Below, in pieces: positions 9,023 to 57,356 of a stretch of 61,116 bases of DNA. The notes under the pieces are model-generated. The model was not told the DNA's origin and made no database searches. It saw only the letters and a program-made list of their open reading frames with translations. The position numbers and the translations under genes are program-made. Position 1 is the stretch's first letter. Each line of letters begins with the position of its first letter. The DNA comes from Bacteroidaceae bacterium (GTDB lineage: Bacteria; Bacteroidota; Bacteroidia; Bacteroidales; Bacteroidaceae): positions 8,751-69,866 of the forward strand of contig CAVHCL010000128.1 in assembly GCA_963634425.1 (NCBI GenBank). The letters are read 5' to 3'.

Positions 9023-9060
9023 TTCTTTGCTGTTTTTGGTCTTTGTCTCATGTGCGGCAT

Positions 9061-25095: not shown

Positions 25096-25869
25096 ATGCA
25101 AGACAGACAACTCAACAGACGGCTATATTTCCGCGAACTCGCATACACCAGCGAACATTACTTCATACCTTACATCAGCCGTTTTATGCGTGTCGGCGCG
25201 CCATTGCGTGTTCTTGAGATAGGATGTGGCGACGGCGGCAACCTGCTGCCGTTCGCACGTTTGGGATGCGAGGTCACGGGGTGCGACATGGCTGAGTGCA
25301 GAATATCGGACGCAAAGCGTTTCTTCCAGGAAGAATCCGCCGACGGCACTTTCATAGCCTCGGATGTCTTCCTGCTCAAGGGGCTTGAACGGCGTTTCAA
25401 CCTCATCATCTGCCACGACGTGATAGAGCACATCCTCGACAAGGGAGAATTCATGCGCAAGTGCAAGTCGCTGCTGCAGCCCGGCGGTGCCATGTTCATG
25501 TCGTTCCCGGCATGGCAGATGCCTTTCGGCGGACACCAGCAGATATGCAGAAGCCGACTGCTCTCACACCTCCCCTTCTTCCATCTGCTGCCCGCACCGC
25601 TCTATTCACGTATACTGAGAATGGGTGGCGAGAACGAGGGATGCATAAAGGAGTTGTTGGACATCAAACAGACACGGTGTCCCATAGAACTCTTCGAGAG
25701 AAGCATCCCCGACTGCTTCGAGGTGGCAGACCGCACCTCGTGGCTCATCAATCCGCACTATAAGGTGAAGTTCGGACTCACTCCGCTCCGTCTCCATGTT
25801 CCGTTTTGTGCCGTGCCGTACCTCCGCAACTTCATAACCACCTCGGTGTTCTATTTTTTGAGAGGATAG
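25096..25869 (+). CDS. Class I SAM-dependent methyltransferase
   Basis: Motif I VLEIGCGDGGN, followed by an acidic residue after beta-2 (VTGCDM), then ICHDVIEHI. Confidence 0.8.
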   Translation: MQDRQLNRRLYFRELAYTSEHYFIPYISRFMRVGAPLRVLEIGCGDGGNLLPFARLGCEVTGCDMAECRISDAKRFFQEESADGTFIASDVFLLKGLERRFNLIICHDVIEHILDKGEFMRKCKSLLQPGGAMFMSFPAWQMPFGGHQQICRSRLLSHLPFFHLLPAPLYSRILRMGGENEGCIKELLDIKQTRCPIELFERSIPDCFEVADRTSWLINPHYKVKFGLTPLRLHVPFCAVPYLRNFITTSVFYFLRG

Positions 25870-25873
25870 AAAC

Positions 25874-25926
25874 TCTAGAGAACCTAGAAGTTCTAGACTT
25901 TCTAGAACTTCTATAAAATCCATAAA
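25874..25926. repeat. Phased 9-bp palindrome array #1 (6 units)
   Basis: CTAGA/CTATA/CCATA cores start at 25876, 25885, 25894, 25903, 25912 and 25921, an exact 9-bp period. The 8-mers are CTCTAGAG, ACCTAGAA, TTCTAGAC, TTCTAGAA, TTCTATAA, ATCCATAA. The array begins 5 nt after the stop at 25869. Confidence 0.9.
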
Positions 25927-25927
25927 G

Positions 25928-25953
25928 GCTGGAGGCTCTGTAGCCTCCAGCCT
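25928..25953 (+). terminator. Perfect stem-loop after the methyltransferase gene
   Basis: GGCTGGAGGCT (25928-25938), loop CTGT, AGCCTCCAGCC (25943-25953): an 11-bp GC-rich perfect stem. There is no clear U-tract, which is common in Bacteroidota. Confidence 0.6.
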
Positions 25954-26093: not shown

Positions 26094-26124
26094 TTTGGAG
26101 GAAAGGGATTTTGTCATATCTTTG
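26094..26124 (+). promoter_or_regulatory. Bacteroides-type promoter P1 for the pilus-like locus
   Basis: TTTG at 26094-26097, a 19-nt spacer, then TATCTTTG (TAnnTTTG) at 26117-26124. The first ATG of the downstream gene lies at 26181. Confidence 0.55.
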
Positions 26125-30556: not shown

Positions 30557-30606
30557 CGTTCCGCAAGGAACGTCAAAGCCGGGTGGGGTTCGACTCCCCT
30601 CCCGGC
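30557..30606 (+). terminator. Two tandem hairpins after the first pilin gene (attenuator or terminator; the second is tRNA minihelix-like)
   Basis: Hairpin 1: CGTTCC-GCAA-GGAACG (30557-30572, GNRA loop). Hairpin 2: GCCGGG-T-GGGG [TTCGACT] CCCC-T-CCCGGC (30578-30606), with a T-loop-like 7-nt loop. Confidence 0.55.
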
Positions 30607-30653
30607 TACAAGAAACGCTGCTACCTCCCTCCCACAAAAACGCTAAGCCGTTA

Positions 30654-30685
30654 TTTGTGAGAATTACTGGATAGTCGTATCTTTG
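30654..30685 (+). promoter_or_regulatory. Bacteroides-type internal promoter P2
   Basis: TTTG at 30654-30657, a 20-nt spacer, then TATCTTTG at 30678-30685. This is the same -7 octamer as P1. It lies 132 nt upstream of the ATG at 30817. Confidence 0.55.
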
Positions 30686-30720: not shown

Positions 30721-30808
30721 CCATAGAAGCTATAGAGAATCTATGAGATCTATAAGTCCTATAGGCTATAGAAAACCTAAAAGCATAGAGGCACTATAGA
30801 GCCTACAT
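30721..30808. repeat. Phased ~9-bp palindrome array #2 (about 10 degenerate units)
   Basis: CTATAG-type cores (CCATAG, CTATAG, CTATGA, CTATAA, CTATAG, CTATAG, CTAAAA, CATAGA, CTATAG, CTACAT) start near 30721, 30730, 30741, 30750, 30759, 30766, 30777, 30784, 30794 and 30803. Spacing is 7-11 nt with a mean near 9. The array ends 8 nt before the ATG at 30817. Confidence 0.85.
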
Positions 30809-30816
30809 AACATGTA

Positions 30817-32823: not shown

Positions 32824-32826
32824 AGA

Positions 32827-34017: not shown

Positions 34018-34038
34018 GAAGAACAAAAGGACAGAGAA

Positions 34039-35061: not shown

Positions 35062-35085
35062 TGTGAAACAAAAGCATACGCTATA

Positions 35086-38000
35086 ATGCAACGCAAGATA
35101 GTCGGTTTACTGATATTTACAATCCTGTCGCTGCTCTGCCCCCCGGGCGGCGCGGCACAAGAGGTGCGGTACGTGTCGAAGGGAGGAGCCTATTCCAACG
35201 ACGGCAAGTCGTGGGAAAAGGCGAAGTCCAACATACAAGACGCCATCAACGACCTCGTGGACAACGGACTCACGGGCGAGGTGTGGGTGGCTCATGGCAT
35301 CTATACCCCTACGGAGAGCACCGAGTCGACAGGCGGCAGCACCCTCTACATGTCGTTCAAAATACCAGCCGGCATCAGTGTGTACGGCGGCTTCAAAGGT
35401 GACGAGACCTCCAAGGAAGCACGCGAGGAGAACGCCACCAAGTCCTTCGGCAACGTGTACAAGTACTCCACCATACTCAGCGGCGACCTCTCCTCCTCGG
35501 CGGAGTTTACATGGAACACCACCAGGGAACGGTGGGAGACCTCGTTCTACGGCAACTGCTACCACGTGGTGTTCTTCGCCACCAATGGCTTTGACGCCAC
35601 AGGGCGCGCCAAGCCCAACGGCGGAGGCAAGCAGTCGGCACTGCTTGAGGGCTGTGTCATAGAGCACGGTAACGCTTACAACTCCGACCTGTCTGGCCGG
35701 CCGCACAACGCCTACGGAGGCGGAGTGTATATGGTGGAAGGCTCGTGCCTGAAGAACTGTCTGGTGCGGCAGTGCGTGTCGTACCGCGACGGCGGAGGCG
35801 TCTATATGGACGGCGGAGGCTACATAGAGCATACTGCCGTGATGGACTGCCAGACTGTGGGCATAGGCATCTCCTACGGTATGGGCGGCGGAGTGTGCAT
35901 GGACGGACCCGACACTTACAGTGCGTCCTACACACCCATGGTTATGCGTCGCTCGGGAGTCTTCGGATGCGTGGGACGCATGGGCGGCGGAGTGGCGATA
36001 GTAGCCAACGACACCGACGGCGACAACAAGTACAAGATAGCGTGCAGTGCCGTAGTGGTGGCAAACAACACTGCCACCAACGAAGCCGGAGGCATATACA
36101 TGAACAGCGGCGGTGTCATAACGCAGGCAACAGTCGTCAACAACAAATGCAACGGTGCGGGCATCATAACCAACGGCATAGCCAACGGACGCTCTGCCGG
36201 CGTATACTGCCGCAACAACGCCATAGTGTCCAACTCCGTGCTGTGGGGAGGTGTGTGCAGTGCCAACAACGACATACAGTATGCCACCTCGCGCTCGGGC
36301 AGCGGCACAGAACTCAGCCCCAACATCATGTACACCTCGCTCAGCCAGTCGGACTACACGGACTGGAGCGGAGTGATAAAGGACAACGTGACGAAGCTGT
36401 CGAAGTACAACAGCAGTGCCGACGGTACCGCATACGCCTCCGAGGGTTATCCGTTGTTCTCCAACCCCACGCCCAACGCCGGTTATGTAAGCTCCGCACA
36501 GAGAACGCAGTTCATCTACGACGGTACAAGCAGCATAGCCGACGGAGTAACCCTCTACGACAACATGGGAGTGGAGGTCAACGCCGACAACATCAAACTC
36601 GGCACTACCTACTATACAGACGTAGCCATGCAGACCGTAGCAGTGGAGGGACGTGACTACACATACCTGGGTGCCGCCTACGACTTCCAGCCGCTGTCAC
36701 GCTCCTCGCTCAACCACCGTGGCGTGCTCACCATCGACCTCGACCGTTACGGACGGACTCCCGCCTATGAGATAGACAAGGACGTGATGGGAAAGAGTTT
36801 TACCCCACGCCCTACCCTCGGTGCGTACCTCACCACCCACACCACCATAGAGCCGCAGACCGTCACCGCCTCGGGAAAGACAACGGTCAACTTCTACGTA
36901 GCCCCCAATGACGACGGCGGCACAGAGTACACCTCCATAGGCTCAAGTTGGAACCAGCCGATACGTTTCTTCTCCGATGCCATGGCGTTCATCAAGGAGC
37001 AGAGCTACCCGTCAGCCACCACCGTCAACGTATATGTGAAAGAGGGAACGGTGAACAATACCAACACCTCCGCCGTAGGACGTATACGCACAACGGACAT
37101 AGGCATACCGGGCAATGTGAACATCTACGGAGGATATTCCTCCGACAACACCGGCACCGACCTTGACAAACGCAGCCCTACCGCCTGCCTTACCATCATC
37201 ACCGGCGACGCACAGGACGACTATGCCCTCAACGTATCCCACCTACTAACGTTCGACGGCACGGAGAACACTGTGCTTGACGGCTTCGCCATACGCAATG
37301 CCAACGCACGCGGCACGGAGAAGATAGAGGGCACACCCGTGACGGTGGGGGCTGCCATGACGTTCAACAACGCCACAGGTGTGAAGATACGCAACTGCAG
37401 CGTGGCTGGACACACCGCCAGCGAGGGTGCCGCCGCCGACATGACGGACTCGGAGGTGTACTTTGAGAACTGCATCTTCCACAACAACGAGAGCCGCACA
37501 CTGGATGCCGACGGCAATGCGGTGTCCAACACCGGCAACATCGTGGTGCGCACAGGTTCCACCGCCAGTTTCTCCCACTGCAACTTCATACGCAACGTGG
37601 GCAACGCCATCGACAGCTACGGCACGGTGAAGGTCGTCAACTCCGTGTTCTACGGCAATATGTCCGAACCGCTCGAAGACACACGCGGCAATGAGGACAA
37701 GGCTCTCACGGCGGTGCGTCTCTTCAACGGAGGCACGTTCACCGGCGACCACAACCTCTTCGACTCCAAATCGGCGGCCTTCATCGCCAACAACAGTCTG
37801 GACGGCACCAACGAGGCTATCCTCACCTACGCCTTCAGCAGCACGTCCACCACATACCCGCGTTTCATGAACCCCACGAAGAACGCCGGGGTCTCCCCAT
37901 CGGGCAATGTCACCTACTATGGGAAGGCGACATCCTTCATGCCGCACAACAACAACCCGATGGTAAACCGTGCCTCCACGGTGGACAGCGACGGCGCAGA

Positions 38001-41000
38001 GACCGACGACCATGCCGAATGGGGCACCGACATGACTGGCACTGTGACCCGCGACTACGGCGGTCTGCCCGACATAGGAGCCATAGAGAACCACGAGAGT
38101 GCCGTCGCCGACGAAGGCGAGAAAGCTTATCCCGACGGACAGAAAGCCTACGGCAAGGTATTGTATGTGCGCAACTACCGCAACGACGACGGCACGGTGG
38201 ACAACAGCACCACCGACCGCGACGGTTATTCATGGAGCAGAGCCATAAACGGCAACGCCACCTACAGCGGAGTGAACGGCTTCCAATATGCCCTCAATAT
38301 GGCAAACACCCTGTGGAATGCCGACCAAACGACACAGCACGAGGTGCACGTGGGCGCGGGCACGTACACCGCCAACCTCACATGGAAGGAAGGCGTGAAT
38401 GTGAAAGGCGGCTATCCTGCTGAAGGCAACCCCGGCGAGAACGAGCGCAGCATCTCCAACACCAAGGCTGAGCACATGACCGTCATCAACGGCAACGGCA
38501 ACGGACGCGTGCTTACGCAATATGCCAATTTCTCCACCGCCGCCGTCTTCGAGGGCTTTACCATACAGGACGGCTACACCACAGGGACTAATTATGGTGC
38601 CGGAGTGTATCTCCTGAGTGGCGGAACGCTGAAGAACTGCCTTGTGCAGAACAATACGTATAGTGCATCTTCAAGAAACACAAATTATTGTCAAGGCGGT
38701 GGAGGCATCTACATGAATGACGGTTCTATTGTCAAGAACTGCAAGATAATGAAGAACTACGTCTATGCCAACAACTACCAGTCATTCTTCGGGGGCGCTG
38801 GTGTGTATGCTGCGGGCGGCACACTCATCAACTCTCTCATTGTGGAGAACACCACAGACAGTCGGAAAAACAATTTGCTCGGTGCCGGTTTGTACATATA
38901 TCAGACCTCCAGCCTTTACAACTGCACCATTGCTTATAATGTGGCTGTAAGTGCGGGGCCGGATGGCGACTATGCCGCTACAGGCGGCGTGTGGGATGCG
39001 GCAGCAAAACATCAAGGTGGTGGAAAATACATCAATCAGTCTCGTTTCTACAACTGCATTATTTGGGGTAACTATGCCAATGGTAGAACAGCAGAGAACC
39101 TGATACAGGTCGGTATGTCCGGTTTCAGTGACCAAGCCGGAAATACAAATGATGCCTTTCATACATGTTACAGTTCGGCATGGTCAAAGACGTATGCTTC
39201 TGACGATGCTTCCGATGTCAACAAAGTGATGATTGTTGGCACGGGTACAGGTTCCGCTTCCAATTATCTTGCGTTCTATAACAACAGCAAAGCCAACGAG
39301 CCTTTCGTTCGCGATGACTACGACAATACAGACTACTCGCTGAAAGCCACCGCCACACAGTGTATCAACAAGGGATCGGAATACCAGGAGCTCACCAACC
39401 TTGACATCACAGTTGACATCAACGGCGAAGAACGCATACAGGACTGCACCATAGACAAGGGTGCATACGAGTACAACCAGTCGCTCGACATCAACCCTGA
39501 GATAATCACCACTACTGGCTCTACGAATAACAAACGTGTCTTTTACGTCACCCCCGACGGTCGTGGCACGGCATCTGCCGACAGTCCCGCCAACGCCGCC
39601 TGCGCCTCTAAGCTTCAGAAGGTGCTCGATGCAGCAGGACGCTACAAGTACAACTATCCGTCGGACACCGTCATCGTGAAGGTGGCAAACAGCGCATCCT
39701 TGGCTGCCGCAGGAGAGAATTTCCAGTACTATGCTTGCCGTACCACCGACGAGGGCGACCAAAGCGCACGTGTATGGTCCATCATGGTGCCGCGCGGAGT
39801 GGAGGTGTGGGGCGGATACACCGACACCTATACCTCTGACGACGACAACGGCTTCTACACCAAGGACTCGGCGGGAAACACCGCTGACAACCGCGACATC
39901 ACGGGCAACCCCACATACTTCGATTCCTACTACTACAACAAGAGCGAAAAACAGTACACATACACCTATCACGTGGTGACATTCACCGACCGTGTGTTTG
40001 ACGGCGAGGGCTACCCGTACGAGGAAGGCGACACCATTGGAGAGCCCAGCACATGGAAGGAAGGTGACAAATATATGTCGATGAGTGAGAAAACCGCCGA
40101 CCGCGCCGTCATAGACGGGCTGTTCGTCACCGGAGGCAACGCCGACGCACAAGTGCCGAACTCCGCCAACGCCACAGCCGACATCAACCAGTATGGCGGA
40201 GCCGCCATAGTCACCGACTATGCCCACGTGCGCAACTGCATAGTGCGCGGCAACAATGGCACCTACGGAGGAGCCCTCGCACTCACCCACAACGCCCTCG
40301 TCTCGGGATGTCTCATAGACCAGAACACCGCCGACTACGGCGGTGCGGTATATATGTTTGAGGAGGGCACAACCCTGTCCGACGGAACTGTCGTCGACAC
40401 CAAGTCCTCAGGCACCGCCGTCGACGAGAACATGGCTCATGTCTACACATCCACCATCGTCAACAACACCGCCAACAAACAAGGCGGCGGCATCTGGTTC
40501 GGACAGAGCAGCGACGACATGAACATCCGCGTCAACTCCTCGGTGATTTGGCAGAACAACAGTGTCAACCAAGCTAATGTGTCGGGACTCTACAACGCCA
40601 CCAAGGCCGCCGACGACCCGTTGACGACGATAGAGTTCTACCCCTTCGCCTTCTGTGCCGTGCAGAACCTGCTCGTGCCAGGACTCAACAACATACAGCT
40701 TGGAAACCTCAACTCCTCGGGTGTGCGTTTCGCCGCCAAGGGCAACGCCGATGACGACCACAACACCATTGCCAAGGAAAGCACGGACGACGACACACAC
40801 GGGAAGTACGACGACTTCGGCTACTATGCCCTCACTGACTACTCCTCACTGATACGCAACGGTATGCCCAGCGAGCAGTACTCCGCATTGGTGACAAGTG
40901 CTGGTCTGTCGGCATTCGACTTCGCCGCCGAAGACCGCCTCGTGTCCACAGGGAGAAACCGCACCAGCATAGAGATGGGAGCGCGTGCCTTGGACAAGAT

Positions 41001-44000
41001 ACTGGACAGCCGACAACTGATGCTGCGTATCTTCGTGGCAAGATCGGAAGACATTAACATGGATGCCGCACAGACCATGATGAATCTTGCCGCCACGGCG
41101 GCCGAAGGCAGTGACGAGGAGTACTACAGCCAGGAGGGCTCATCGTTCGCCTTCCCCATGCAGAGCCTGCAGGACGCACTTGACTACATAATAGAGGCGC
41201 GCTCGCTCAACGGGGTGAAGACGGGGCTCAACCAAGAGGGCTCCAACAACCTGCCCTTTGAGATATGCCTCGGCAGGGGCACATATTATCCCAGGCACAA
41301 CATAGACAACGTACACATCAACTCCTCGGGAAACAGTTTTGCCATACCCGAGGGCGTGAGCGTGTACGGAGGCTTCGCCATAGACAACCCCGACAGGGAG
41401 AAGTCTTACTTCGGCAGATACTACAAGGAAGGCGACAACCCCGCCGGCTATACCAATGTCCTGTCCGACAACGTCAAGTCGGTGGTAGAGACAGACAACG
41501 ACACCTTAGTGAGCATAGGAGGCAGTGACGGCTACGCCATAGACCAGCTGCCCATAAGCAAGTTGAAGCCACGCCGCCGGACGCTGGACAACAACGGCAA
41601 CAACATCATAGAGCCGTGGGAGTTCGAGAATCAGACCATACTCTCGGGCGACGTGAGCTACCAAGCCGCCAACGGAAGCTATCATGTGGTGACGCTCGTC
41701 GCCGACCAGAACGTGACGGGCATGCTGCCCAAGGCCGCCGAACCGACAAGCGACGCTTTGGATTACAGCGTCTACACGACAGCCAACGGCGAAGGCTCCT
41801 ACGCCTATGAGCAGGGGCAGGACATAGTGCTTGACGGACTGCAGATAGTAAGCGGCCATGCCTTACACTATACCGAAGGCTCCACCGACTATACGAACAT
41901 GTACAACCACTACCTCGGCGGCGGAATCTTCGTCAACGGCAACCGCTACTGCGACGACTACAACAAGAAAACTTCACTCGCCGCCGAAGGGTTCGGCACC
42001 ATAGAATACAAGCACAGCGGCATAAGCGAATCTGTGGGCTACCGCAACATACCCCTTATCATTGCCAACTGCAAGTTCACCAACAATACGGCAGGAGGTG
42101 GAGGCGCGCTCTGCTCCAACGGTCTGGTGAACATATACAGCAGCGTATTCGAACAGAACCGCTCTGTCAGCGGCTGTGAGACGCTGCTTGACATTAACGG
42201 CGACGAGAAGGAAGTGGCATACGCCGGCATAGGCGGAGCAGTGCTCGCCACATACCAGCTGAGAGTCTACAACACGCTGTTCGCCAACAATGAGGCGTAC
42301 GACGAGAGATTGAACGAGAAGCCTACCGAGTTCAAGAGGATGCTGGCCGACGAGACACGCTCACTTTTAGGCGGCGCGGGCGGTGCGGTGTATGTGGGAC
42401 GCTTTGGCTTCTTCCACATCCTCAACTGCGACTTTGTGCGCAACCGTGCCAACGCATACCCCGTGATGTTTACCATGAACCCCAACCGCGACTTCACAGA
42501 CGGACGCAACGGCGGCATAGGAGAGGGCAACCCTCTGCGTCCCACCACGACATACTACAACCAGTTTGTAAACACCCTGTTCTGGGGCAACGACATCAAC
42601 GACGAGATGAGCAAGAAATACGACAGTGTCAACCCGCTGTTCAAGTTCAACTCGCGTCTCTTCTGCAACTACGCTCCCGGCGAGTTCTCCGGCATCTACT
42701 CCGCTCCCGACTTCACCGACGACACCAAGATACCCTCCGACCTGACGGCTCTCGACGGCAACAGCACATCACGGCACTCCGACTTCGGCGAGACGGCATG
42801 GTACTGCGCTTATGAGTACGGGCGCGGTACGACACCGCACAACATCACGGACATGAGAAACCTTGGATTCCTCCCGCACGTTTACGCCCGCGACATGATA
42901 CACTCCGAAGGCGAGAAGAAAGGGGCGGACACCTACCAGAACTGCAACATACGCCTCAGCTCGGAGAACTCTGACCTCGAAGGTCCCAACTTCGTGAACC
43001 CGTCGCTGACTGCGGGCTACGACGGTTACTACGAGTCCGCCGACTGGAGTCCGGCACGCCTCTCCAACCTCGTGGACAACGGAGCTGGAAAGATAGCCCA
43101 AGAGATTACCCTCGAGAATGAGGTCTATAAGACTTCGTTCAAGGAGTACACGTCTGAAAACATCCCCTCACGCTCTATATATTACAATAATGGTAATGCC
43201 GACGGCTACACCACCGAGACCGTAGGCGACTACGACACCGAGGGAGTCTACACCACCACACGTGTGCTGAACACCTACGACAGAAACCGCACGTATCTGC
43301 CAGTGGGTGAGATGACGTATATGGAAAGCTCAGCCACGGGACAAGCCCTGTACCGCATCTCGTACGACCCAAACCCCACACACAACCAGACATACATAGA
43401 CATAGGCGTGTACGAGTATCCGCACACCGAGCTGCAGTATACCACTACCGGTGACGAGGTGGACATCCTTTGGGTGTCGCCGTTTGAGAAACCCGACAAC
43501 GGTCTGCCCAACGGCAGCGCATGGAGCCAGCCCACCAGCGACCTACAGCGTGCCATAGAGACACTGCTCGCCAGCCGCAACGGCCACCGCAAGGAGATAC
43601 GCCTGATGGACGGGCCGTTCACTCCCATCTACAACATAGAGGACAAATTGGCGTTCACCATTGACACCAAAGCCATCAACGAGTCGGTGACCATGCCAGT
43701 GAAGGCGTACGAAGAGGATGGTAAAACAGTGAAAGAATATGACACAGGCAAGGGCGTGGTGTCCCTCACCATAAAAGGCGGGTACAGCCGTGAACTCAAC
43801 AACGTGTACAACCCTTTGGAGTATCCCGCCGTCATACGCCAACAGGCACGATCCCATGCTACATCCGACAGGTGGAACTACCTCTTCTATATCCACGACG
43901 GCACCCAGCGCTACGGCTACAACACATACAACGAGGCGAACGGCTACGGCAACTACGCCGACAGCGACGGCGAAGGTTACAGCAAGACCGTGAACACCAT

Positions 44001-47000
44001 ACCGCTGCACATCGACGGTGTGACACTCGTCAACAACCAGGCCAACAAGGATGTCAACGGTGCCGCCATCTTCTACGGTGACCTTGCCGACGACATCACG
44101 GCTTCCACACCAGCCCACGTCTCGATAAACACCTATTACACTGACGCGGAAAAGTCCGAAGAGTCCGAGGAGCCTACACGCTACTACAACCGCACCGTGG
44201 ACAAGTACTACACCGATGCCACGTACCAGGTGGTGTCGGAGACGGAGACACCGTTTGTCTCTTACAAGTATGCGGAGACCACTGCCAACAAGATTGTCAT
44301 CAGCAAGAGCAAGATAATGAACAGCGGTTCCTATGCCGACGACGACCACTCCACCTGCGCCGTGTACATAGGAAAGAACGGAGGCAATGCGTTGCTCTAC
44401 AACAACGTGATGCACAGCAATACAGGCAATCCGCTTGTCTCGGCAGTGCCCACCACCATCGTCAACAACACATATGCCCTCAACAAGGGACGCGTAGACC
44501 TCAACGGCGAGAACACCAGAGTGTCGTCGCTCGTCATCAACCAAGACGACAACGACGGCAACTACGACCCCGACGGACCTATGCTTGCGCCTCACCACCA
44601 GCGGCGCGCCCCATCGGCTGCCACTGGCTCGGCAATATTCAACAGCGTGTTCTGGCGCAACAACAACGACGGTGTGCAGTTTGTACTGCCAGGGTTCGTC
44701 AGCGCACAGAAGTCGGGCTCCATATTCTCGCACAATGCCGTTACGGGGTACAGCACCGATGTGAGCGACTACTCCCTACCCGACATACCCGACCAGAACT
44801 ACAACGTGGGACTCTCTGACGAGAACAGCGACATCATCAACGGTCCCAACTTCGCAGACCCTAAACAGGAAGCCACGCTGGCAGACGACATAGAGTTGCG
44901 CAACTTCACTCTGCTGCCCTCACTGCGTCTGCTCAACAAAGGCAACAACACCCTCTACAACGACAACGTTATCAAGAACCCCGACACGTATAATATATAC
45001 GACCTGGCGTGGATGACCACCACACGCACCGATGCCGGCGGCGAGCAACGCTTCGTGTACGACATAGACCTCGGTGCATATGAATATCAGAACAACCTCA
45101 ACCGCATCATCTACGTCAACCCCAACGTGAGTGCCACGGGACTGGGCAACTCGTGGGCCGACCCTGTGGCTTACGGCAACCTGCAGGCAGCCATAGACCT
45201 TGCCGCGGTGTATCATGTGAACAACGTAGACGAAGAGGCGTACGTGTTCGTCAAGGGAGCCGGCACAAGCTCCGCCGGACTGCACCTCGGCGAGTCGGTA
45301 ATCATGCGCGACGGCGTGAGCGTGTACGGAAGCATACTCCCCACACGCACGGAGGACTGCCCATACACCACAACCTCCAGCAACGGCATACGTGAATATG
45401 CGCAGACCGAAATAGACAAGTACGTGGCAACCGTCACCGCCGAGCGCGGAGGACTTGCCGACCCCACCGCCGGCACCACCACCGTCAGCGGTATCAAGAC
45501 TCCCAGCTCCACGACGTTCAACAACACCAACGCCGAGATAGTGTCCGTAGTCGACGGCTTTGCCGTCACTGCCACCAACAGAAAGAACCCCTCGGGCACT
45601 GTCGCACAACCGGTAATAAACGTGCAGCCGTTTAACTCCGACGGACGCGTGGCTCTGCGCAACATCATAGTACACGGCAACGACTTGTCCGCCCAACGGC
45701 TCACCGACCTCGCCACAGTGGACAATGCCCTCATATATGAAGCCCTGTTCCGCGACAACAAGGTGGACGACACTGGATGCCATCTGCGCATCGGGCGCAA
45801 CGGCTATGGGGTGAACCTCACCGTAGAGGGCAGAACAGTGGGAGCAGACGGGAATGTCACCTACAACGGTACCGACAGCAAGGACGGAGACCATATCTTC
45901 AACTCGCTCGTCAACTATACCGGACACCCTGCCACAGAAAACACCCTCTCGGGCTATAATTACAAGGTGAGCGCCCCCAACCTCAACTACCAGCTCACAG
46001 AGATGTCAACACACATAGACCAGTGCGAAGCAGTCAACCCGATGAAGGATGTGCCGACACTGAAGCAGTTCATCAACTACGACACCGACCGCGACCTCCT
46101 TGGCAACCTGCGTCTGCTCAGGGGCGTGAGCACCGAAGACAAGGTAGACCGCGGTGCATTCGAGACATGGCGTGTGGACCAGGACGTTGTCTGCACGTCG
46201 AAGGATGCTGACGGCAACCTCACCAACTACTACCCACACGTCGGTTCGGTAGTCTACATCATGCAGGGCAACAGCCTTGTGATGGAGCAGTATGAGACCC
46301 AAGCCGCCGAAGGAGTGACAACGCAGACCTCTGGCACCGCCTTGCGCCCTGCCTATCTGCTCGTACAGGACGGCGCGTCGCTCTACGGCAACGGCAACGC
46401 CGTCAGCGTGAGCTATGTGGGAGTGGAGCGGGAGACGAGCAAAGACGGCTCCATGGTGAGTCTGCCTTACGCCATGCAGTATGGGGGGACGGACATCGCC
46501 TCCAACGGTACGGGAGCTCCGGCATACTCTGCCGACGGCGTGCTGACACTCTCCGCCGACAAGGCCGGGACATATTCCTACAACGGCGTGGGACGCTCGG
46601 CATGGAACTCCACATTCTACAACACGGCTTCGCCGCAGTGGACAGAACTCACCGACGTGACGACCGACTCCAACAAAGGCATACTCTACAAATCTGCCGC
46701 CGACAAGCTCTACCGTTTCACTGCACAGGGCGATGCCGACAACATGGACTCCTATGTGTACACCGAGACTGCAGGCGAGATAAGCAAGACGGTGGAACTG
46801 CAGCAGTACGACGACCGTGTCTCCACCGACGGCGCTGCGGACTTCACGGAGAAGGAGGACATGGGATGGAACTGCATCGGTCTGCCTTGGCTCGTGAGTG
46901 ACTATGACACATCAGCGAAGGAGACTCTCAGCGGTGACAGCCACTACAACATGGACATACCTCACACCCTGTGGCTGTGGTATGACGGCAAGACATATCT

Positions 47001-47475
47001 CGACGGCACAACGGCGGCAGACGGCGACGGTGGCTTCTACAGCGTAAGCTCGTGGGACACCTCCGACTGGCATCTCGCCACCGGCGACAAAGCTCGCATC
47101 TGGACAGGCGAGGGCATCTTCACACAGACCGCAGCCGTAGCGGACAAAGAGGAACTCACCTTCCATCGCCCGGTGTACAACCACACGACACGCGCCAAGG
47201 GAACGGGAGCTCCGTCCGTGCGGCACAACGTGCGCCGCTATGCCGCAGAGCCCGACATTGACGACGCACAGGGCGACATAGAGATACGGGTGTACGGCCA
47301 CGAAGTGTACATAAGCGGACTGCAAGGCGGCGAGGAGATAGACATCTACGACGCTTCCGGACGGAGACACGCCTCGGCAAAGGCGCAAAGCAAGCAGTAC
47401 AAGACTGTAGTAACCGCCGACGGAGTGTACATAGTAAAAGTAGACGGCAAGTTGAAGAAAGTGATAGTCAGATAG
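35086..47475 (+). CDS. Giant (4129 aa) secreted multi-module right-handed beta-helix protein with a T9SS C-terminal sorting domain
   Basis: Signal peptide MQRKIVGLLIFTILSLLCPPGGAAQ. Seven modules each open with a cap like (I/V)(Y/F)V..G.G.SW..P...LQ.AI and close with D.GAYE. Many GGG(V/I)Y and N-N-x-A beta-helix rungs. The last ~70 aa, ...EIDIYDASGRRHA...ADGVYIVKVDGKLKKVIVR, look like a type A T9SS CTD. Confidence 0.85.
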   Translation: MQRKIVGLLIFTILSLLCPPGGAAQEVRYVSKGGAYSNDGKSWEKAKSNIQDAINDLVDNGLTGEVWVAHGIYTPTESTESTGGSTLYMSFKIPAGISVYGGFKGDETSKEAREENATKSFGNVYKYSTILSGDLSSSAEFTWNTTRERWETSFYGNCYHVVFFATNGFDATGRAKPNGGGKQSALLEGCVIEHGNAYNSDLSGRPHNAYGGGVYMVEGSCLKNCLVRQCVSYRDGGGVYMDGGGYIEHTAVMDCQTVGIGISYGMGGGVCMDGPDTYSASYTPMVMRRSGVFGCVGRMGGGVAIVANDTDGDNKYKIACSAVVVANNTATNEAGGIYMNSGGVITQATVVNNKCNGAGIITNGIANGRSAGVYCRNNAIVSNSVLWGGVCSANNDIQYATSRSGSGTELSPNIMYTSLSQSDYTDWSGVIKDNVTKLSKYNSSADGTAYASEGYPLFSNPTPNAGYVSSAQRTQFIYDGTSSIADGVTLYDNMGVEVNADNIKLGTTYYTDVAMQTVAVEGRDYTYLGAAYDFQPLSRSSLNHRGVLTIDLDRYGRTPAYEIDKDVMGKSFTPRPTLGAYLTTHTTIEPQTVTASGKTTVNFYVAPNDDGGTEYTSIGSSWNQPIRFFSDAMAFIKEQSYPSATTVNVYVKEGTVNNTNTSAVGRIRTTDIGIPGNVNIYGGYSSDNTGTDLDKRSPTACLTIITGDAQDDYALNVSHLLTFDGTENTVLDGFAIRNANARGTEKIEGTPVTVGAAMTFNNATGVKIRNCSVAGHTASEGAAADMTDSEVYFENCIFHNNESRTLDADGNAVSNTGNIVVRTGSTASFSHCNFIRNVGNAIDSYGTVKVVNSVFYGNMSEPLEDTRGNEDKALTAVRLFNGGTFTGDHNLFDSKSAAFIANNSLDGTNEAILTYAFSSTSTTYPRFMNPTKNAGVSPSGNVTYYGKATSFMPHNNNPMVNRASTVDSDGAETDDHAEWGTDMTGTVTRDYGGLPDIGAIENHESAVADEGEKAYPDGQKAYGKVLYVRNYRNDDGTVDNSTTDRDGYSWSRAINGNATYSGVNGFQYALNMANTLWNADQTTQHEVHVGAGTYTANLTWKEGVNVKGGYPAEGNPGENERSISNTKAEHMTVINGNGNGRVLTQYANFSTAAVFEGFTIQDGYTTGTNYGAGVYLLSGGTLKNCLVQNNTYSASSRNTNYCQGGGGIYMNDGSIVKNCKIMKNYVYANNYQSFFGGAGVYAAGGTLINSLIVENTTDSRKNNLLGAGLYIYQTSSLYNCTIAYNVAVSAGPDGDYAATGGVWDAAAKHQGGGKYINQSRFYNCIIWGNYANGRTAENLIQVGMSGFSDQAGNTNDAFHTCYSSAWSKTYASDDASDVNKVMIVGTGTGSASNYLAFYNNSKANEPFVRDDYDNTDYSLKATATQCINKGSEYQELTNLDITVDINGEERIQDCTIDKGAYEYNQSLDINPEIITTTGSTNNKRVFYVTPDGRGTASADSPANAACASKLQKVLDAAGRYKYNYPSDTVIVKVANSASLAAAGENFQYYACRTTDEGDQSARVWSIMVPRGVEVWGGYTDTYTSDDDNGFYTKDSAGNTADNRDITGNPTYFDSYYYNKSEKQYTYTYHVVTFTDRVFDGEGYPYEEGDTIGEPSTWKEGDKYMSMSEKTADRAVIDGLFVTGGNADAQVPNSANATADINQYGGAAIVTDYAHVRNCIVRGNNGTYGGALALTHNALVSGCLIDQNTADYGGAVYMFEEGTTLSDGTVVDTKSSGTAVDENMAHVYTSTIVNNTANKQGGGIWFGQSSDDMNIRVNSSVIWQNNSVNQANVSGLYNATKAADDPLTTIEFYPFAFCAVQNLLVPGLNNIQLGNLNSSGVRFAAKGNADDDHNTIAKESTDDDTHGKYDDFGYYALTDYSSLIRNGMPSEQYSALVTSAGLSAFDFAAEDRLVSTGRNRTSIEMGARALDKILDSRQLMLRIFVARSEDINMDAAQTMMNLAATAAEGSDEEYYSQEGSSFAFPMQSLQDALDYIIEARSLNGVKTGLNQEGSNNLPFEICLGRGTYYPRHNIDNVHINSSGNSFAIPEGVSVYGGFAIDNPDREKSYFGRYYKEGDNPAGYTNVLSDNVKSVVETDNDTLVSIGGSDGYAIDQLPISKLKPRRRTLDNNGNNIIEPWEFENQTILSGDVSYQAANGSYHVVTLVADQNVTGMLPKAAEPTSDALDYSVYTTANGEGSYAYEQGQDIVLDGLQIVSGHALHYTEGSTDYTNMYNHYLGGGIFVNGNRYCDDYNKKTSLAAEGFGTIEYKHSGISESVGYRNIPLIIANCKFTNNTAGGGGALCSNGLVNIYSSVFEQNRSVSGCETLLDINGDEKEVAYAGIGGAVLATYQLRVYNTLFANNEAYDERLNEKPTEFKRMLADETRSLLGGAGGAVYVGRFGFFHILNCDFVRNRANAYPVMFTMNPNRDFTDGRNGGIGEGNPLRPTTTYYNQFVNTLFWGNDINDEMSKKYDSVNPLFKFNSRLFCNYAPGEFSGIYSAPDFTDDTKIPSDLTALDGNSTSRHSDFGETAWYCAYEYGRGTTPHNITDMRNLGFLPHVYARDMIHSEGEKKGADTYQNCNIRLSSENSDLEGPNFVNPSLTAGYDGYYESADWSPARLSNLVDNGAGKIAQEITLENEVYKTSFKEYTSENIPSRSIYYNNGNADGYTTETVGDYDTEGVYTTTRVLNTYDRNRTYLPVGEMTYMESSATGQALYRISYDPNPTHNQTYIDIGVYEYPHTELQYTTTGDEVDILWVSPFEKPDNGLPNGSAWSQPTSDLQRAIETLLASRNGHRKEIRLMDGPFTPIYNIEDKLAFTIDTKAINESVTMPVKAYEEDGKTVKEYDTGKGVVSLTIKGGYSRELNNVYNPLEYPAVIRQQARSHATSDRWNYLFYIHDGTQRYGYNTYNEANGYGNYADSDGEGYSKTVNTIPLHIDGVTLVNNQANKDVNGAAIFYGDLADDITASTPAHVSINTYYTDAEKSEESEEPTRYYNRTVDKYYTDATYQVVSETETPFVSYKYAETTANKIVISKSKIMNSGSYADDDHSTCAVYIGKNGGNALLYNNVMHSNTGNPLVSAVPTTIVNNTYALNKGRVDLNGENTRVSSLVINQDDNDGNYDPDGPMLAPHHQRRAPSAATGSAIFNSVFWRNNNDGVQFVLPGFVSAQKSGSIFSHNAVTGYSTDVSDYSLPDIPDQNYNVGLSDENSDIINGPNFADPKQEATLADDIELRNFTLLPSLRLLNKGNNTLYNDNVIKNPDTYNIYDLAWMTTTRTDAGGEQRFVYDIDLGAYEYQNNLNRIIYVNPNVSATGLGNSWADPVAYGNLQAAIDLAAVYHVNNVDEEAYVFVKGAGTSSAGLHLGESVIMRDGVSVYGSILPTRTEDCPYTTTSSNGIREYAQTEIDKYVATVTAERGGLADPTAGTTTVSGIKTPSSTTFNNTNAEIVSVVDGFAVTATNRKNPSGTVAQPVINVQPFNSDGRVALRNIIVHGNDLSAQRLTDLATVDNALIYEALFRDNKVDDTGCHLRIGRNGYGVNLTVEGRTVGADGNVTYNGTDSKDGDHIFNSLVNYTGHPATENTLSGYNYKVSAPNLNYQLTEMSTHIDQCEAVNPMKDVPTLKQFINYDTDRDLLGNLRLLRGVSTEDKVDRGAFETWRVDQDVVCTSKDADGNLTNYYPHVGSVVYIMQGNSLVMEQYETQAAEGVTTQTSGTALRPAYLLVQDGASLYGNGNAVSVSYVGVERETSKDGSMVSLPYAMQYGGTDIASNGTGAPAYSADGVLTLSADKAGTYSYNGVGRSAWNSTFYNTASPQWTELTDVTTDSNKGILYKSAADKLYRFTAQGDADNMDSYVYTETAGEISKTVELQQYDDRVSTDGAADFTEKEDMGWNCIGLPWLVSDYDTSAKETLSGDSHYNMDIPHTLWLWYDGKTYLDGTTAADGDGGFYSVSSWDTSDWHLATGDKARIWTGEGIFTQTAAVADKEELTFHRPVYNHTTRAKGTGAPSVRHNVRRYAAEPDIDDAQGDIEIRVYGHEVYISGLQGGEEIDIYDASGRRHASAKAQSKQYKTVVTADGVYIVKVDGKLKKVIVR

Positions 47476-47478
47476 GTT

Positions 47479-47522
47479 TTCTAGAAGTTCTAGAGACTCT
47501 AAAAAATCTAGAAGATCTATAA
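47479..47522. repeat. Phased 9-bp palindrome array #3 (5 units, plus a degenerate unit over the stop codon)
   Basis: The 8-mers TTCTAGAA, TTCTAGAG, CTCTAAAA, ATCTAGAA and ATCTATAA start at 47479, 47488, 47497, 47506 and 47515, an exact 9-bp period. The array fills the 60-nt gap between the giant gene and the next gene. Confidence 0.9.
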
Positions 47523-47535
47523 AAACAACAAACGT

Positions 47536-50500
47536 ATGAGAAACTATATAAACAAGATATTGCTCTGCATGGTGTTCCTCATAGGCATCGTGGCGACTGC
47601 CGCTGCCGACAATCTCTATGTCATCACCGACGGCAACGGCAACTACCTCGCCAACAATGGAGGAACTCTCACCAATGCCACCACCTTCAACCCCAAAACC
47701 TGTATGTGGACGTGCTCGGGAACAAGCAGCGGAACACTGAGTAACCAAGGGCATTATCTGTATGGGGATAGATCATCTTTGTCGTTGAAAACATCTTCTT
47801 CCGACGGCACATCGTGGACAATATCCAACAACAGGGTGTATACCACACCTTTGTTTTCCACCTATTACATAACCTACAACAACAGCAAGTGGACTACGAG
47901 TCGGTCTGGCGGTGCTTCCATCTACTCAACAACCTTGAAGCAGACTGCCAAATCTGGCACCGTGACTGTGGAATACGACAACACACAGACATTCGAACGT
48001 GAGGGCGACACGCGCGACTATTATGTGAGCGCAGTGTCATACACCCCAGCATACAACACCTACACTTGGACGGAATCCGGCGGCACAAAGACTTGGTATG
48101 CGTCGTCTGACGACAGTTATGCGTCAGAAACAGCACCGTCGGAGGTAACCACAGTGTCGGCCTACGAATGGACTTCCAGCCATTCCAACATCTCCGTCAC
48201 CAAGGACAACGAACATCCCGAGCAGGCAACGGCTTCCTACGACACTAAGTTCTCCTCCGAGACGACCGTGACCATCACCGCCACAGCCACAATACCGCAG
48301 TCCGCCAGTGAGTTCATGACATCCGATGCCACCATGAGCGGCACTGTCACAGCCACGCTGCTGCCGCGCCACCTTACCGACATACAGATTTCCGCCAGCA
48401 CGACGGCACTCTACATAGGCGACACAGGGTCGTTGACCGTCACCACAAATTCCAACGGTGCGGTGACATACACCTCCAGCGACACGTCAATAGCGGAAGT
48501 CTCCACAGACGGAGTGATTACCGCCAAAGGTACTGGCAACAAAAACGCTGCTGAAGTGCAGATAACTGTAAGCACGTCGCAGACCGACGACTACGAGGCA
48601 GCCTCCGCCACATTGACCATTGAGGTGAGGAAACGTCCCGCAAAGATAGACCTCCAGTACGACAAGTCCTCTCTGACCTACGGCGAGGCGGTGCCTGTGC
48701 TCACCTCGTCCACGCTGACCGACGGCATCAGCGGCGAAGAGATTAATAAGGGGAAAATAAGCTTCTCGTCTTCCGTCACACACATACAGGCTGATGCCTC
48801 CACCGGTGCCATCACTGTAGACAAGGCTGGCATCGCCACTATCACCGCCACGTTTAGCGGCAACAAAACCTATGCGAAGGCGGAAGCGACGTTCGACATT
48901 ACCGTAAGCAAGGCTGCCACTACGCTCTCCTTTCCCGAGACGGACTATTTCGTGCTCTACACCCAAGGCTTCACCGCCCCAGCCGCCACGCTCACCCCTA
49001 CGGATGCCGGAACGGTGAGCTACAGCTGCGTATCAACTCCCGAGGGAGCTGTGACGATAGACGGGAGCACCGGAGCTGTGACCCTTAACGCCATGGAGGC
49101 GGAAGCCACCGTCACAGCCTCGTTTGCCGGCAACGACTGCTACGAGCCCTCCGAAGCATCGTACAAGCTCACGGTGAGCACACGCGCCATCCCCACCATA
49201 ACCGCCACCGTGCCCTCGTCACTTTACGTGGATGACTCTCGTACGGTAAGGGCCTCTACCAACAGCTCCGCAGGTATCGTCTACTCCTGCGACGACACGG
49301 ATGTGCTCACCATAGACGAGGCTGGCAAGATGACCACCGTAGGCGAGGGAAAGGCCGTGGTGAAGATTACCTCAACGGAAGACGACGATTACATAACACT
49401 GACCAAGGAGTACACGGTGGAGGTGAAACGGTATCCCACGGAACTCATGGTGACTTATCCCTACGACATCTACCACACCGACTACGAGGGGCAGATAATG
49501 CCCTCCGTGACACTCCGTGAGACAGTGAACAACTCTCTGATAGGCCAAAACGAATTAGGTGGAGAGGTCACGTACAGTGCTGTGCCGAGCACAGTGCTGA
49601 CAGTGGACGATCTGACTGGAGAGGTGACAATAACAGGCAACGGAACTGCGGTCATCACAGCCTCTTACGAGGGCAACCACAAATACGAACCGTCGTCGGG
49701 AACATTCGTCATGCAAACACACAAGGTGGCAGGCCCAGGCTCCTTCATCAGACTGAAAGACCCGGACGGCAACTATCTGAATACCAATGGGACCACCGTC
49801 AGTGTGACCGCCGACGAAGACGCGTCCTCTATAATATGGTATGGGAAAGACCGTTCACTGCTCTTCTACCAGTGCGGGCTTTATCTGAAAGACACCTCAC
49901 CGGCACTGATGTCCCCTATAGATGTCGGCGAAAGCGGCAACAGTTTCTCGCTCACCCGTACGGGACATGTGTACACCGTCAGCGACGGCACAGGCAGTCT
50001 GACTTCAGGGAGCAACAATGAATGGACTGTGGAATTTGTAGAATACCTGCCGCTCACGTTCAAAAGTGCCGGCTACGGTTTCTCCACCATCTACTGCCCC
50101 TGCAACCTGTCGAGCCCGGCAGGAGTGGTGGCATACTATCCCACAGATCGTAATGCCGACGACACTGGTGCCGCCGACTTCGTGATAACGCTGAAGTCCA
50201 TGCCGGGCAACTTCATACCCCATGGTACTCCTACTGTGCTGCACACGCAGTACGTGGGCACGTACAACTTCCACATCATAGAGGAGGATGTGTACGACAT
50301 CACCGACCGTTGGGACGGACTCGCCGGCACACTGCCCACGTTAAACACCGCCTCGGCATACTCGGGTACACAGTGTCCCTACACCCTGCAGCCCGACAAG
50401 TCGGAGTCAGCCGGCTTCTATCCGTGGAGCAGTCAACGACACACTACAATAGAGCCTTTCCGCTGTTACATACCGGGCGAAAACGCCGCCAATGCCAGGA

Positions 50501-50673
50501 GTTTCCGCTTCGACATGGAGGACAACGGGACGGATACCATAAACAGTACTGCCGACGATGATGCCTCGGACGACAAGGTGTACAACCTCCAGGGTATGTA
50601 TATGGGCGACGGCTTGCAGCGTCTGTCTGCCGGGGTGTATGTGAGGGGCGGCAAGAAAGTTGTGAAGAAATAG
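47536..50673 (+). CDS. T9SS-sorted surface protein with tandem Ig-like (Big_2-type) domains
   Basis: Signal peptide MRNYINKILLCMVFLIGIVATAAA. Big_2-like repeats (e.g. ISASTTALYIGDTGSLTVTTNSNGAVTYTSSDTSIAEVSTDGVITAKGTG). C-terminal KVYNLQGMYMGDGLQRLSAGVYVRGGKKVVKK is a T9SS CTD. Confidence 0.8.
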   Translation: MRNYINKILLCMVFLIGIVATAAADNLYVITDGNGNYLANNGGTLTNATTFNPKTCMWTCSGTSSGTLSNQGHYLYGDRSSLSLKTSSSDGTSWTISNNRVYTTPLFSTYYITYNNSKWTTSRSGGASIYSTTLKQTAKSGTVTVEYDNTQTFEREGDTRDYYVSAVSYTPAYNTYTWTESGGTKTWYASSDDSYASETAPSEVTTVSAYEWTSSHSNISVTKDNEHPEQATASYDTKFSSETTVTITATATIPQSASEFMTSDATMSGTVTATLLPRHLTDIQISASTTALYIGDTGSLTVTTNSNGAVTYTSSDTSIAEVSTDGVITAKGTGNKNAAEVQITVSTSQTDDYEAASATLTIEVRKRPAKIDLQYDKSSLTYGEAVPVLTSSTLTDGISGEEINKGKISFSSSVTHIQADASTGAITVDKAGIATITATFSGNKTYAKAEATFDITVSKAATTLSFPETDYFVLYTQGFTAPAATLTPTDAGTVSYSCVSTPEGAVTIDGSTGAVTLNAMEAEATVTASFAGNDCYEPSEASYKLTVSTRAIPTITATVPSSLYVDDSRTVRASTNSSAGIVYSCDDTDVLTIDEAGKMTTVGEGKAVVKITSTEDDDYITLTKEYTVEVKRYPTELMVTYPYDIYHTDYEGQIMPSVTLRETVNNSLIGQNELGGEVTYSAVPSTVLTVDDLTGEVTITGNGTAVITASYEGNHKYEPSSGTFVMQTHKVAGPGSFIRLKDPDGNYLNTNGTTVSVTADEDASSIIWYGKDRSLLFYQCGLYLKDTSPALMSPIDVGESGNSFSLTRTGHVYTVSDGTGSLTSGSNNEWTVEFVEYLPLTFKSAGYGFSTIYCPCNLSSPAGVVAYYPTDRNADDTGAADFVITLKSMPGNFIPHGTPTVLHTQYVGTYNFHIIEEDVYDITDRWDGLAGTLPTLNTASAYSGTQCPYTLQPDKSESAGFYPWSSQRHTTIEPFRCYIPGENAANARSFRFDMEDNGTDTINSTADDDASDDKVYNLQGMYMGDGLQRLSAGVYVRGGKKVVKK

Positions 50674-57116: not shown

Positions 57117-57196
57117 CTATAGAAGGCTTAGAAGCTCTAGTGGCTCTAGAATACCTAGAGTTTCTATAGCTTCTAAGCCTTCTATAGCCTCTACAA
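57115..57196. repeat. Phased 9-bp palindrome array #4 (9 units)
   Basis: CTATA/CTTAG/CTAGT/CTAGA/CTAGA/CTATA/CTAAG/CTATA/CTACA cores start at 57117, 57127, 57137, 57146, 57155, 57164, 57173, 57182 and 57191 (spacing 10, 10, then 9 six times). The first unit overlaps the ackA stop codon. Confidence 0.9.
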
Positions 57197-57356
57197 ACAA
57201 GCAAAAAGAAAAAATAATACCATTAAAACAAAAATATTTGTATGTTTTGTTGTTGTTACCAGTAAATATTGTACTTTTATGCTCGCAACAAGCAAGAATG
57301 TGATATAATTGCAGCGTATTTTTAAGTGACAATACATTTTTTACACAAACAACACA

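Follow-up and report, generated by a model that had tools for sequence, protein, structure and literature searches.

What is the role of a tandem repeat that lies in the short gap between two genes of an apparent operon? The repeat is in a 61,116-nt stretch of DNA from a member of the Bacteroidaceae (the window), where the stop codon of a giant gene is separated from the start codon of the next gene by 60 nt. A sequence-only reading of the window had reported five exact-period units at 47479-47522, a degenerate sixth unit that overlaps the stop codon of a 4129-codon ORF, and an end of the array 13 nt before the ATG at 47536. The sequence bears out each of these points. From 47479, the units are TTCTAGAAg, TTCTAGAGa, CTCTAAAAa, ATCTAGAAg, and ATCTATAA (to 47522), with an exact period of 9 nt; TRF also reports a period of 9, with 5.0 copies. 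The degenerate unit (AGATAGGT, 47470-47477) overlaps the TAG of an ORF at 35086-47475, which does encode 4129 amino acids. In the register of the consensus TCTAGARNN, there are six in-phase units at 47471-47524. We will call them array 3. The features of the junction are:

35086..47475, + strand: giant ORF, 4129 aa, with a C-terminal T9SS type A sorting domain (TIGR04183)
47471..47524, + strand: array 3, six in-phase units GATAGGTTT / TCTAGAAGT / TCTAGAGAC / TCTAAAAAA / TCTAGAAGA / TCTATAAAA (from the sequence, TRF, and a pattern scan)
47473..47475, + strand: TAG stop of the 4129-aa ORF; it falls in the degenerate unit that opens the array and also in the predicted 5' arm of its hairpin
47521..47535, + strand: A-rich leader AAAAACAACAAACGU, predicted to be unpaired, ahead of the ATG at 47536 (conserved in the relative L001)
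47536..50673, + strand: downstream ORF, 1045 aa, with Ig-like domains (Big_2, Big_3_5) and a signal-peptide-like N terminus

A two-unit pattern (TCTAGANNNTCTAGA, with up to two mismatches) has 14 matches in the window, versus 1.3 expected. None of 100 shuffled sequences reached 14 matches, and 13 of the 14 fall within three arrays. A relative has the same array in both of its independent assemblies, L001 and L002, so array 3 is not an assembly artefact. It is not a coding repeat either, as it is intergenic. The position of the stop codon is identical in orthologs that lack the array (L003 and L004).

The gene after array 3 had been described as the next T9SS cargo gene. The giant protein fits the T9SS part of this description, as its C terminus matches TIGR04183 (25 bits, versus a cutoff of 23). 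The downstream protein of 1045 amino acids is at best a candidate for T9SS cargo, as its last 149 residues gave no match to a T9SS C-terminal domain. We rejected a link between the arrays and T9SS or secreted cargo: the genes upstream of arrays in the window include a methyltransferase and ackA, and the genes that flank arrays in the wider family look varied.

Could array 3 be part of a promoter or a terminator? We found no sigma-70-type promoter in the 60-nt gap. A scan of the gap for the Bacteroidetes-type consensus (TTTG-N17-23-TAnnTTTG) gave only a 7/8 match, TAGGTTTT, which lacks the -33 box. Since the gap fits neither consensus, we rejected the promoter reading, and the earlier statement that the gap has no promoter box stands. 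In 47200-47800, we found no GC-rich stem-loop with a U-run (an intrinsic terminator), so we rejected a canonical terminator as well. The stem of array 3 is AU-rich and is followed by AAAAACAACAAACG, with no U-run. The claim that there is no stable terminator is correct for canonical terminators, but the array itself is predicted to form a stable hairpin (-17.8 kcal/mol). Rfam, searched at the gathering threshold, gave no family, and the sub-threshold matches (P26 and mir-558) were at chance level and fell on two other arrays of the window only (arrays 1 and 4, below). We found no known RNA family or tRNA-related element. We conclude that array 3 belongs to none of the following: promoters, operators at promoters, canonical terminators, and known RNA families.

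Just one canonical promoter was identified upstream of the operon that contains array 3:

30654..30685, + strand: Bacteroidetes-type promoter, TTTG-N20-TAtcTTTG (consensus scan)

Behind this promoter, the + strand ORFs are tightly packed, from 30817 to 50673. Given that the gap has neither a promoter nor a terminator consensus, array 3 is most likely intercistronic, within one transcript. It follows that array 3 is probably not a classical operator. The sequence-only reading had also placed the array within a single transcript and had argued against classical promoter repression; the lone upstream promoter, the packed ORFs, and the lack of a promoter in the gap support both claims.

We made three other observations upstream. 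At 26094-26124, there is another canonical Bacteroidetes promoter (TTTG-N19-TAtcTTTG), and the ~340 nt that follow it, to 26465, contain no convincing ORF; this region may be a long leader or a non-coding RNA. At 30578-30610, just after the ORF at 28819-30549, there is a hairpin with a GCCGGG...CCCGGG-type stem and GGTTCGA, which resembles a tRNA T-loop, in its loop. ARAGORN found no tRNA there, and the hairpin could be a tRNA-derived remnant or a terminator. Finally, ATGTAATG at 30813-30819 is a start-stop mini-uORF that overlaps the ATG of the operon's first gene.

Array 3 is a palindrome, and as RNA it is predicted to fold into a hairpin of 14+6 bp (-17.8 kcal/mol; z = -3.4 versus dinucleotide shuffles):

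47472..47485, + strand: 5' arm of the outer 14-bp stem, AUAGGUUUUCUAGA (MFE and centroid)
47507..47520, + strand: 3' arm of the outer 14-bp stem, UCUAGAAGAUCUAU (MFE and centroid)
47488-47504, + strand: inner stem, 2+4 bp

This hairpin is retained in both the MFE and the centroid structure of a 181-nt context, and the A-rich region around the start is unpaired in the centroid. To see whether the mirror arrangement goes beyond what CTAG cores at a regular period would give, we compared each array to versions of itself in which each column of the units was permuted among the units. This column shuffle preserves the cores and the composition. Mirror arrangement exceeded the expectation in array 3 (z = -2.3), array 1 (-1.95), and array 4 (-5.6) of the window, as well as in array 3 (-4.0) and array 4 (-7.0) of L001 and in L152 (-2.7). 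Arrays outside the lineage of the window showed no hairpin excess by the same test, with z near 0 in most of the 28. Palindromy is maintained in the lineage of the window.

Does this reflect selection on RNA? The stems are almost purely Watson-Crick, with few G-U pairs, and the antisense strand folds equally well. We had considered G-U pairs as a sign of strand-specific selection on RNA, and they are uninformative here, as the two strands do not differ in how well they fold. Because both strands fold equally well, the fold alone cannot separate a function in RNA from palindromy of the DNA. The sequence-only reading favored a role in RNA or in transcription elongation; such a role is one candidate, and the array hairpins may also have their role at the DNA level.

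Array 3 is one of four arrays in the window, each of which adjoins + strand genes. The others are:

25865..25927, + strand: array 1, seven units, the first of which begins within the stop codon (TAG) of a methyltransferase ORF
30722..30812, + strand: array 2, a variant whose core is CTATAG and whose spacing is irregular (7-11 nt)
57118..57198, + strand: array 4, nine units, which begin 1 nt past the TAA that ends ackA

Array 1 has a perfect 13-bp stem (25885-25897 / 25901-25913), with a GC-rich hairpin downstream of the array at 25926-25953. Array 2 is downstream of the promoter at 30654-30685 and ahead of the ATG at 30817, in what is presumably the 5' leader, and the mini-uORF directly follows it. 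Array 4 has an interrupted 31-bp hairpin at 57117-57187 (-48 kcal/mol, z = -9.5). Across 45 units from the lineage of the window and L152, the composition is T(82%) C(87%) T(87%) A(98%) G(71%) A(87%) R(89%) N N. As a side observation, 13 nt in the 3' arm of array 1 (25901-25914) are a perfect complement of units 1-2 of array 3 (47482-47494). With units this close to palindromic, the RNA of any array could pair in trans with that of any other.

The core of the repeat contains CTAG, which is the most depleted tetranucleotide in the window. There are 12 CTAG in the 61,116 nt, versus 88 expected from a Markov model or 232 from mononucleotide frequencies. Ten of the 12 are in arrays 1, 3, and 4, and just two are outside of the arrays. 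In 23 kb from the relative L001, all 6 of the CTAG are in arrays, and 23 kb from L004 contain 0 CTAG. Other 4-bp palindromes are depleted as well: the observed/expected ratios in the window are 0.13 for CTAG (~0.02 outside of the arrays), 0.25 for GATC, and 0.28 for GGCC. In L004, the ratios are 0 for CTAG and 0.06 for AGCT.

A full-text search of the literature found no description of such arrays of CTAG nonamers. We consider it established that they form a real, specific, and dispersed repeat family with fast turnover.

If the array is important for the two genes, then it might be conserved at orthologous junctions. We identified orthologs of the downstream protein with 75%, 59%, and 57% identity. 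The same element is found at the junction in the closest of these relatives (L001, with L002 as an independent assembly), with five units and a hairpin of -18.9 kcal/mol, but not in the 59% (L003) or 57% (L004) relatives, which lack the array and its hairpin. In L004, the junction is a plain 68-nt gap. In L003, the same junction (L003:9297-9960) is filled by ~700 bp with three copies of an unrelated repeat of ~150 nt, so this junction seems to attract repeats. When we searched metagenome contigs (metagenome_contigs) for further orthologous junctions with an exact-flank pattern, there were 0 matches. The known carriers of the junction array are thus two species only.

These two species both have five units at the junction, and the position of the stop codon and the leader are identical, with the register of the array shifted by 1 nt. 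The arrays differ at 13 of 45 positions: 5 of 30 in the cores and 8 of 15 in the spacers. For comparison, the divergence between the window and L001 at four-fold degenerate sites ranges from 0.22 (ackA) to 0.30 (the end of the giant gene). So the rate of change in the cores is not clearly below neutral, and the spacers change faster than neutral.

L001 also has an array after ackA. With the loops aligned, 24 pairs of columns are paired in both species; 4 of the 24 have changed on both sides and 3 of the 24 have a compatible change on one side. Perfect 20-bp stems have been kept in the two species even though the arms differ. We also examined 80 ackA loci from named genomes (1.4 Mb from herbivore-gut and rumen MAGs of Bacteroidaceae or Prevotellaceae; best, 90% identical), and none of these have an array after ackA. 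Several of them have an ordinary hairpin there, with a T-run in L133, L140, and L143, or GC-rich in L132, L135, and L138. By eye, the array hairpin is the sole structure that we could see after ackA in the window and L001.

The presence of arrays is patchy among the relatives. In L325, the promoter of the operon is kept, and there is only a two-unit seed at the site of array 2. In place of the array, between the promoter and the first gene, L325 has a 90-aa ORF (L325:110-382) with a weak match to DUF6364 (E = 0.026). We take the N terminus of this ORF to be ribbon-helix-helix-like.

Similar arrays are sporadic in other Bacteroidales contigs from the gut or rumen and in some viral contigs. The 1.4 Mb of ackA loci contain three clusters of CTAG: L152 (six units), L200 (CTAGT units), and L165 (period 7). 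The array in L152 lies between two co-directional genes, in the sense orientation, 55 nt upstream of the next gene, which is presumably fabG-like, judging by its N terminus. To look more broadly, we scanned metagenome contigs with CTAGANNNNCTAGAANNNCTATAA, which gave at least 120 matches; this pattern imposed the CTATAA end. We then filtered the listed matches for CTAG-depleted contigs with GC content of at least 0.42. Among the matches listed, at least 34 are family-like arrays.

The common layout of these arrays is a stop codon, the array, a leader of 2-71 nt, and an ATG; the leader is usually A-rich and 13-40 nt long. In half of the intergenic arrays among the matches listed, the gap from the stop codon to the array is -4 (an overlap) to 13 nt. 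Gene calls in the metagenome contigs were based on a longest-ORF heuristic, which gave at least one false call of an array within an ORF (L152). The arrays commonly lie between housekeeping genes that have no relation to one another; judging by their ends, the flanking genes presumably include gyrB, secA (C terminus), purH, fabG, and a susC/susD pair. Of 16 cases that could be scored for orientation, some of them not independent loci, about 13 have the purine-rich side of the unit on the sense strand; this bias may reflect nothing more than the A-richness of the coding strand (AT skew of about +0.2). The arrays in L217, L250, L262, and L276 are antisense to the flanking genes.

Since arrays often begin near stop codons, might they provide backup stops? 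Arrays 1, 3, and 4 do have TAG in frame, but the junction array of L001 is shifted by 1 nt. Across the family, TAG is in frame with the upstream stop in 13 of 24 arrays, or in 6 of 17 once arrays that supply their own stop codon are excluded. We rejected this idea. Footprints of transposons with 9-bp target site duplications seem unlikely as well: a palindrome of even length is at odds with a stagger of 9 bp, and we saw no remnants of insertion sequences.

Some arrays vary in length or lie within genes. L262 and L314 have 7 and 8 units. Some contigs have many arrays. In L266, two of 17-21 units flank a 225-aa ORF (8746-9423), and nonamer arrays at 6936-6975 and 7858-8032 are part of another ORF, in which they encode (LEN/Y)n and (SRE)n. 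This second ORF is presumably an AMP-binding acyl-CoA ligase.

Two viral contigs (L065 and L082) have arrays of RCTAGANGGR at several junctions in a block of + strand genes, and each array begins at or just after a stop codon. The sequences that flank the arrays are 97-99% identical between the two contigs. About a third of the spacer positions differ, as do the numbers of units, and all of the CTAGA cores are kept. The arrays end in a conserved box, GGGCTGGCGCGATGA (L065:5592-5606 and the equivalent sites in L082 and L113), which is absent from the bacterial arrays. When we compared the viral contigs to annotated phages with blastn, we found only weak matches to amidases, and PHROGs likewise identified amidase only. 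Most of the viral-contig matches to a 4-unit pattern are unrelated: they are ordinary coding repeats from AT-rich genomes that are rich in CTAG. We also set aside a group from the human gut (L228, L234, L253, L254, L267, and L296), which are coding repeats of Ser/Asp/Asn on the other strand.

We tentatively favor the view that array 3 is a dispersed REP-like repeat whose hairpin, in the transcript, would modulate the stability of mRNA 3' ends, read-through, or translational coupling. Array 3 is one copy of a fast-evolving family of tandem 9-nt units, with the core TCTAGAR, that occupies short untranslated stretches after stop codons. In the polycistronic transcript, it would form a stem-loop whose 5' arm includes the stop codon of the giant gene and whose 3' arm ends 15 nt before the next AUG. 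The stem-loop might be a barrier to 3' exonucleases or a weak attenuator, and could thereby set the ratio of the upstream message to the downstream message. Because a terminating ribosome must melt the hairpin, it might also couple the translation of the two genes or slow termination. We infer all of these functional effects of array 3. The array hairpin after ackA, where relatives have terminator hairpins, points the same way. Also, REP hairpins within 15 nt of a stop codon reportedly cause ribosome stalling and lower expression, and REPs are reported to stabilize transcripts (PMC12306157).

There are limits to the hairpin reading. The stem is AU-rich and of modest stability. Because arrays outside of the lineage show no hairpin excess, the hairpin cannot be the general function of the family. 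The arrays must also be dispensable, as array 2 is missing from L325 and the junction array is missing from L003 and L004. Finally, the scarcity of G-U pairs and the folding of the antisense strand fit DNA palindromes that are templated by repair as well as they fit selection on RNA.

This brings us to the possibility, which we consider doubtful but worth taking seriously, that the arrays are selectively neutral, self-propagating tandem repeats. Slippage or CTAG-directed nicking and repair would duplicate the TAGANNNNC unit, and arrays would grow, shrink, and decay, and be tolerated where they are harmless. Selection would play no part in their palindromy, which would arise when the cores, themselves palindromes, undergo template switching or hairpin-templated repair. 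This would account for the rapid change in the spacers (8/15, versus 0.22-0.30 at four-fold sites), for the differences in spacers (~1/3) and unit number between viral contigs with flanks that are 97-99% identical, for the 7 and 8 units of L262 and L314, and for the patchy presence among relatives. Arrays also occur inside ORFs, in two open frames, (SRE)n or (LEN/Y)n; ORFs that end in an array stop at its first TAG, and the frames are otherwise random (6/17 in frame). A series of n TAGANNNNC units plus TA would give the nTAGA at the start of the arrays and the CTAn at their end, decayed units read CCAGA or CTGGA, and there is no tie to any gene class. But pure slippage does not predict that all four of the multi-unit, short-period arrays in the window would share one core and one period. 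Furthermore, the core is a word that is otherwise purged (2 CTAG outside of arrays in 61 kb, and 0 in 23 kb of L004), two species whose arms differ have both kept perfect 20-bp stems, and compact viral genomes retain arrays of 60-100 nt at the same junctions. Another possibility is that the array is double-stranded DNA that is bound cooperatively by a protein, with one dimer per TCTAGA unit, or that a regulator reads it as an island of methylated CTAG. Its role would be that of a roadblock or silencer, and its specificity would come from the scarcity of CTAG across the genome. Ribbon-helix-helix repressors bind tandem boxes in this way: MetJ binds tandem 8-bp boxes and omega 7-bp heptads, and Arc recognizes TAGA. 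The palindromic core, the high information at 6-7 positions, the strict 9-bp phasing with free spacers, the near-absence of CTAG elsewhere, the strand symmetry of the hairpins, and the use of the same core and period in different Bacteroidales and viral contigs are all consistent with this. Yet there is no promoter in or near the gap, and the sites are after stop codons, in leaders, or inside ORFs, instead of at promoters. The orientation bias relative to genes (about 13:3) and the asymmetry of the unit elsewhere (the base before CTAG varies and the A after it is kept, as in RCTAGA in L065 or ACTAG in L200) also count against it, and we found no candidate for the binding protein: the weak DUF6364-like ORF in L325 (E = 0.026) is a hint only. 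We think that a double-stranded target is unlikely.

A further possibility, on the model of TRAP or HutP, is a target in single-stranded RNA, with an oligomeric factor that would read spaced UAG or CUAGA and control termination, processing, or translation at junctions. UAG triplets are regularly spaced and in sense positions that are predicted to be transcribed (leaders, intercistronic gaps, and 3' UTRs), most members of the family are unstructured, and hosts share the signal with viral contigs, as if a conserved host factor were at work. However, the triplets are separated by 6 nt, versus 2-3 nt for TRAP and 4 nt for HutP, and in the window they are locked in hairpins. Some arrays are antisense to the flanking genes (L217, L250, L262, and L276), and, as mentioned above, the purine bias of the sense strand may only mirror the A-rich coding strand. 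We know of no candidate protein, and we consider an RNA target to be very unlikely. A broader proposal, which we also view as a long shot although not as distant a one, is that arrays of CTAGA nonamers are a widespread and so far unrecognized cis-signal of gut and rumen Bacteroidales and some viral contigs, which is read by a conserved host factor and marks gene boundaries within operons. The factor would be an oligomeric protein that binds nucleic acids, or else an enzyme that modifies or repairs DNA at CTAG, and the purge of CTAG would provide the specificity. In a variant of this proposal, the arrays may instead pair in trans, as each is complementary to every other.

Bacteroidales largely do without Shine-Dalgarno-led initiation. 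How expression is balanced in their long operons is poorly understood, and the operon here is a 20-kb unit with a 12.4-kb gene. A repeat that is easily recognized, lies exactly at gene boundaries, and evolves quickly might offer a handle on intercistronic control in the phylum. It could also be a marker for strain typing and a test case for why these genomes purge CTAG and yet keep it in phased arrays. If there is a dedicated reader protein, this would be a new regulatory system; if there is none, the arrays would be a clear case of a selfish, REP-like repeat that is specific to one lineage and lies outside of the Proteobacteria.

How do the arrays compare to known systems? They resemble tandem operators of ribbon-helix-helix proteins (MetJ, 8 bp; omega, 7 bp; Arc, TAGA) in having unspaced repeats, a conserved and partly palindromic core, and a variable number of units. 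But those operators overlap promoters and have a cognate repressor gene, whereas array 3 lies between ORFs and has a period of 9 bp. To our knowledge, there is no repressor for an array of CTAG nonamers. With the targets of TRAP and HutP, which are protein families of Firmicutes that recognize spaced UAG or GAG triplets, the array shares only the repetition of UAG at fixed spacing. Here, in contrast, the spacers are 6 nt (not 2-4), the triplets are base-paired, and the array is not in a 5' leader with a terminator and antiterminator. Variable-number or contingency repeats also gain and lose units between close relatives and have occasional in-frame copies within ORFs. However, a period that is a multiple of three cannot switch frames, array 3 is intergenic with 5 units in both species, and the same core is found at many unrelated loci, in more than one genome.

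Intercistronic stem-loops can define stable 3' ends and uncouple the abundance of neighboring messages. The stem-loop that we predict between cistrons of one transcript is similar to the RNase III stem-loops of T7 and to the stabilizing 3' hairpins of operons. Similar arrays are found at the junctions of viral contigs, but RCTAGANGGR is not self-complementary.

The remaining comparison is to REPs and BIMEs. REPs are mobilized by RAYT transposases (Y1). Like them, our arrays are short, dispersed palindromes in transcribed gaps, often within 15 nt of a stop codon, with a patchy distribution and arms that co-vary. There are 4 copies in the 61 kb of the window and 2 in 23 kb of L001. An imperfect palindrome that can form a stem-loop is found in the arrays from the lineage of the window, but not in the wider family: most members outside of this lineage are not palindromic as a whole, and the arrays are built from tandem 9-nt units. 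REPs are described as single imperfect palindromes of 20-40 nt with a GTAG or CGTC head (PMC3733652). That head is absent here, as the arrays have nTAGA and CTAn at their ends and CTAG in the core. The roles reported for REPs are mRNA stabilization, attenuation, and ribosome stalling at stop codons (PMC12306157). Overall, we infer that the array is probably closest to REPs and BIMEs in its action, while falling outside of their sequence definition, and that it resembles ribbon-helix-helix operators in form but not in position.
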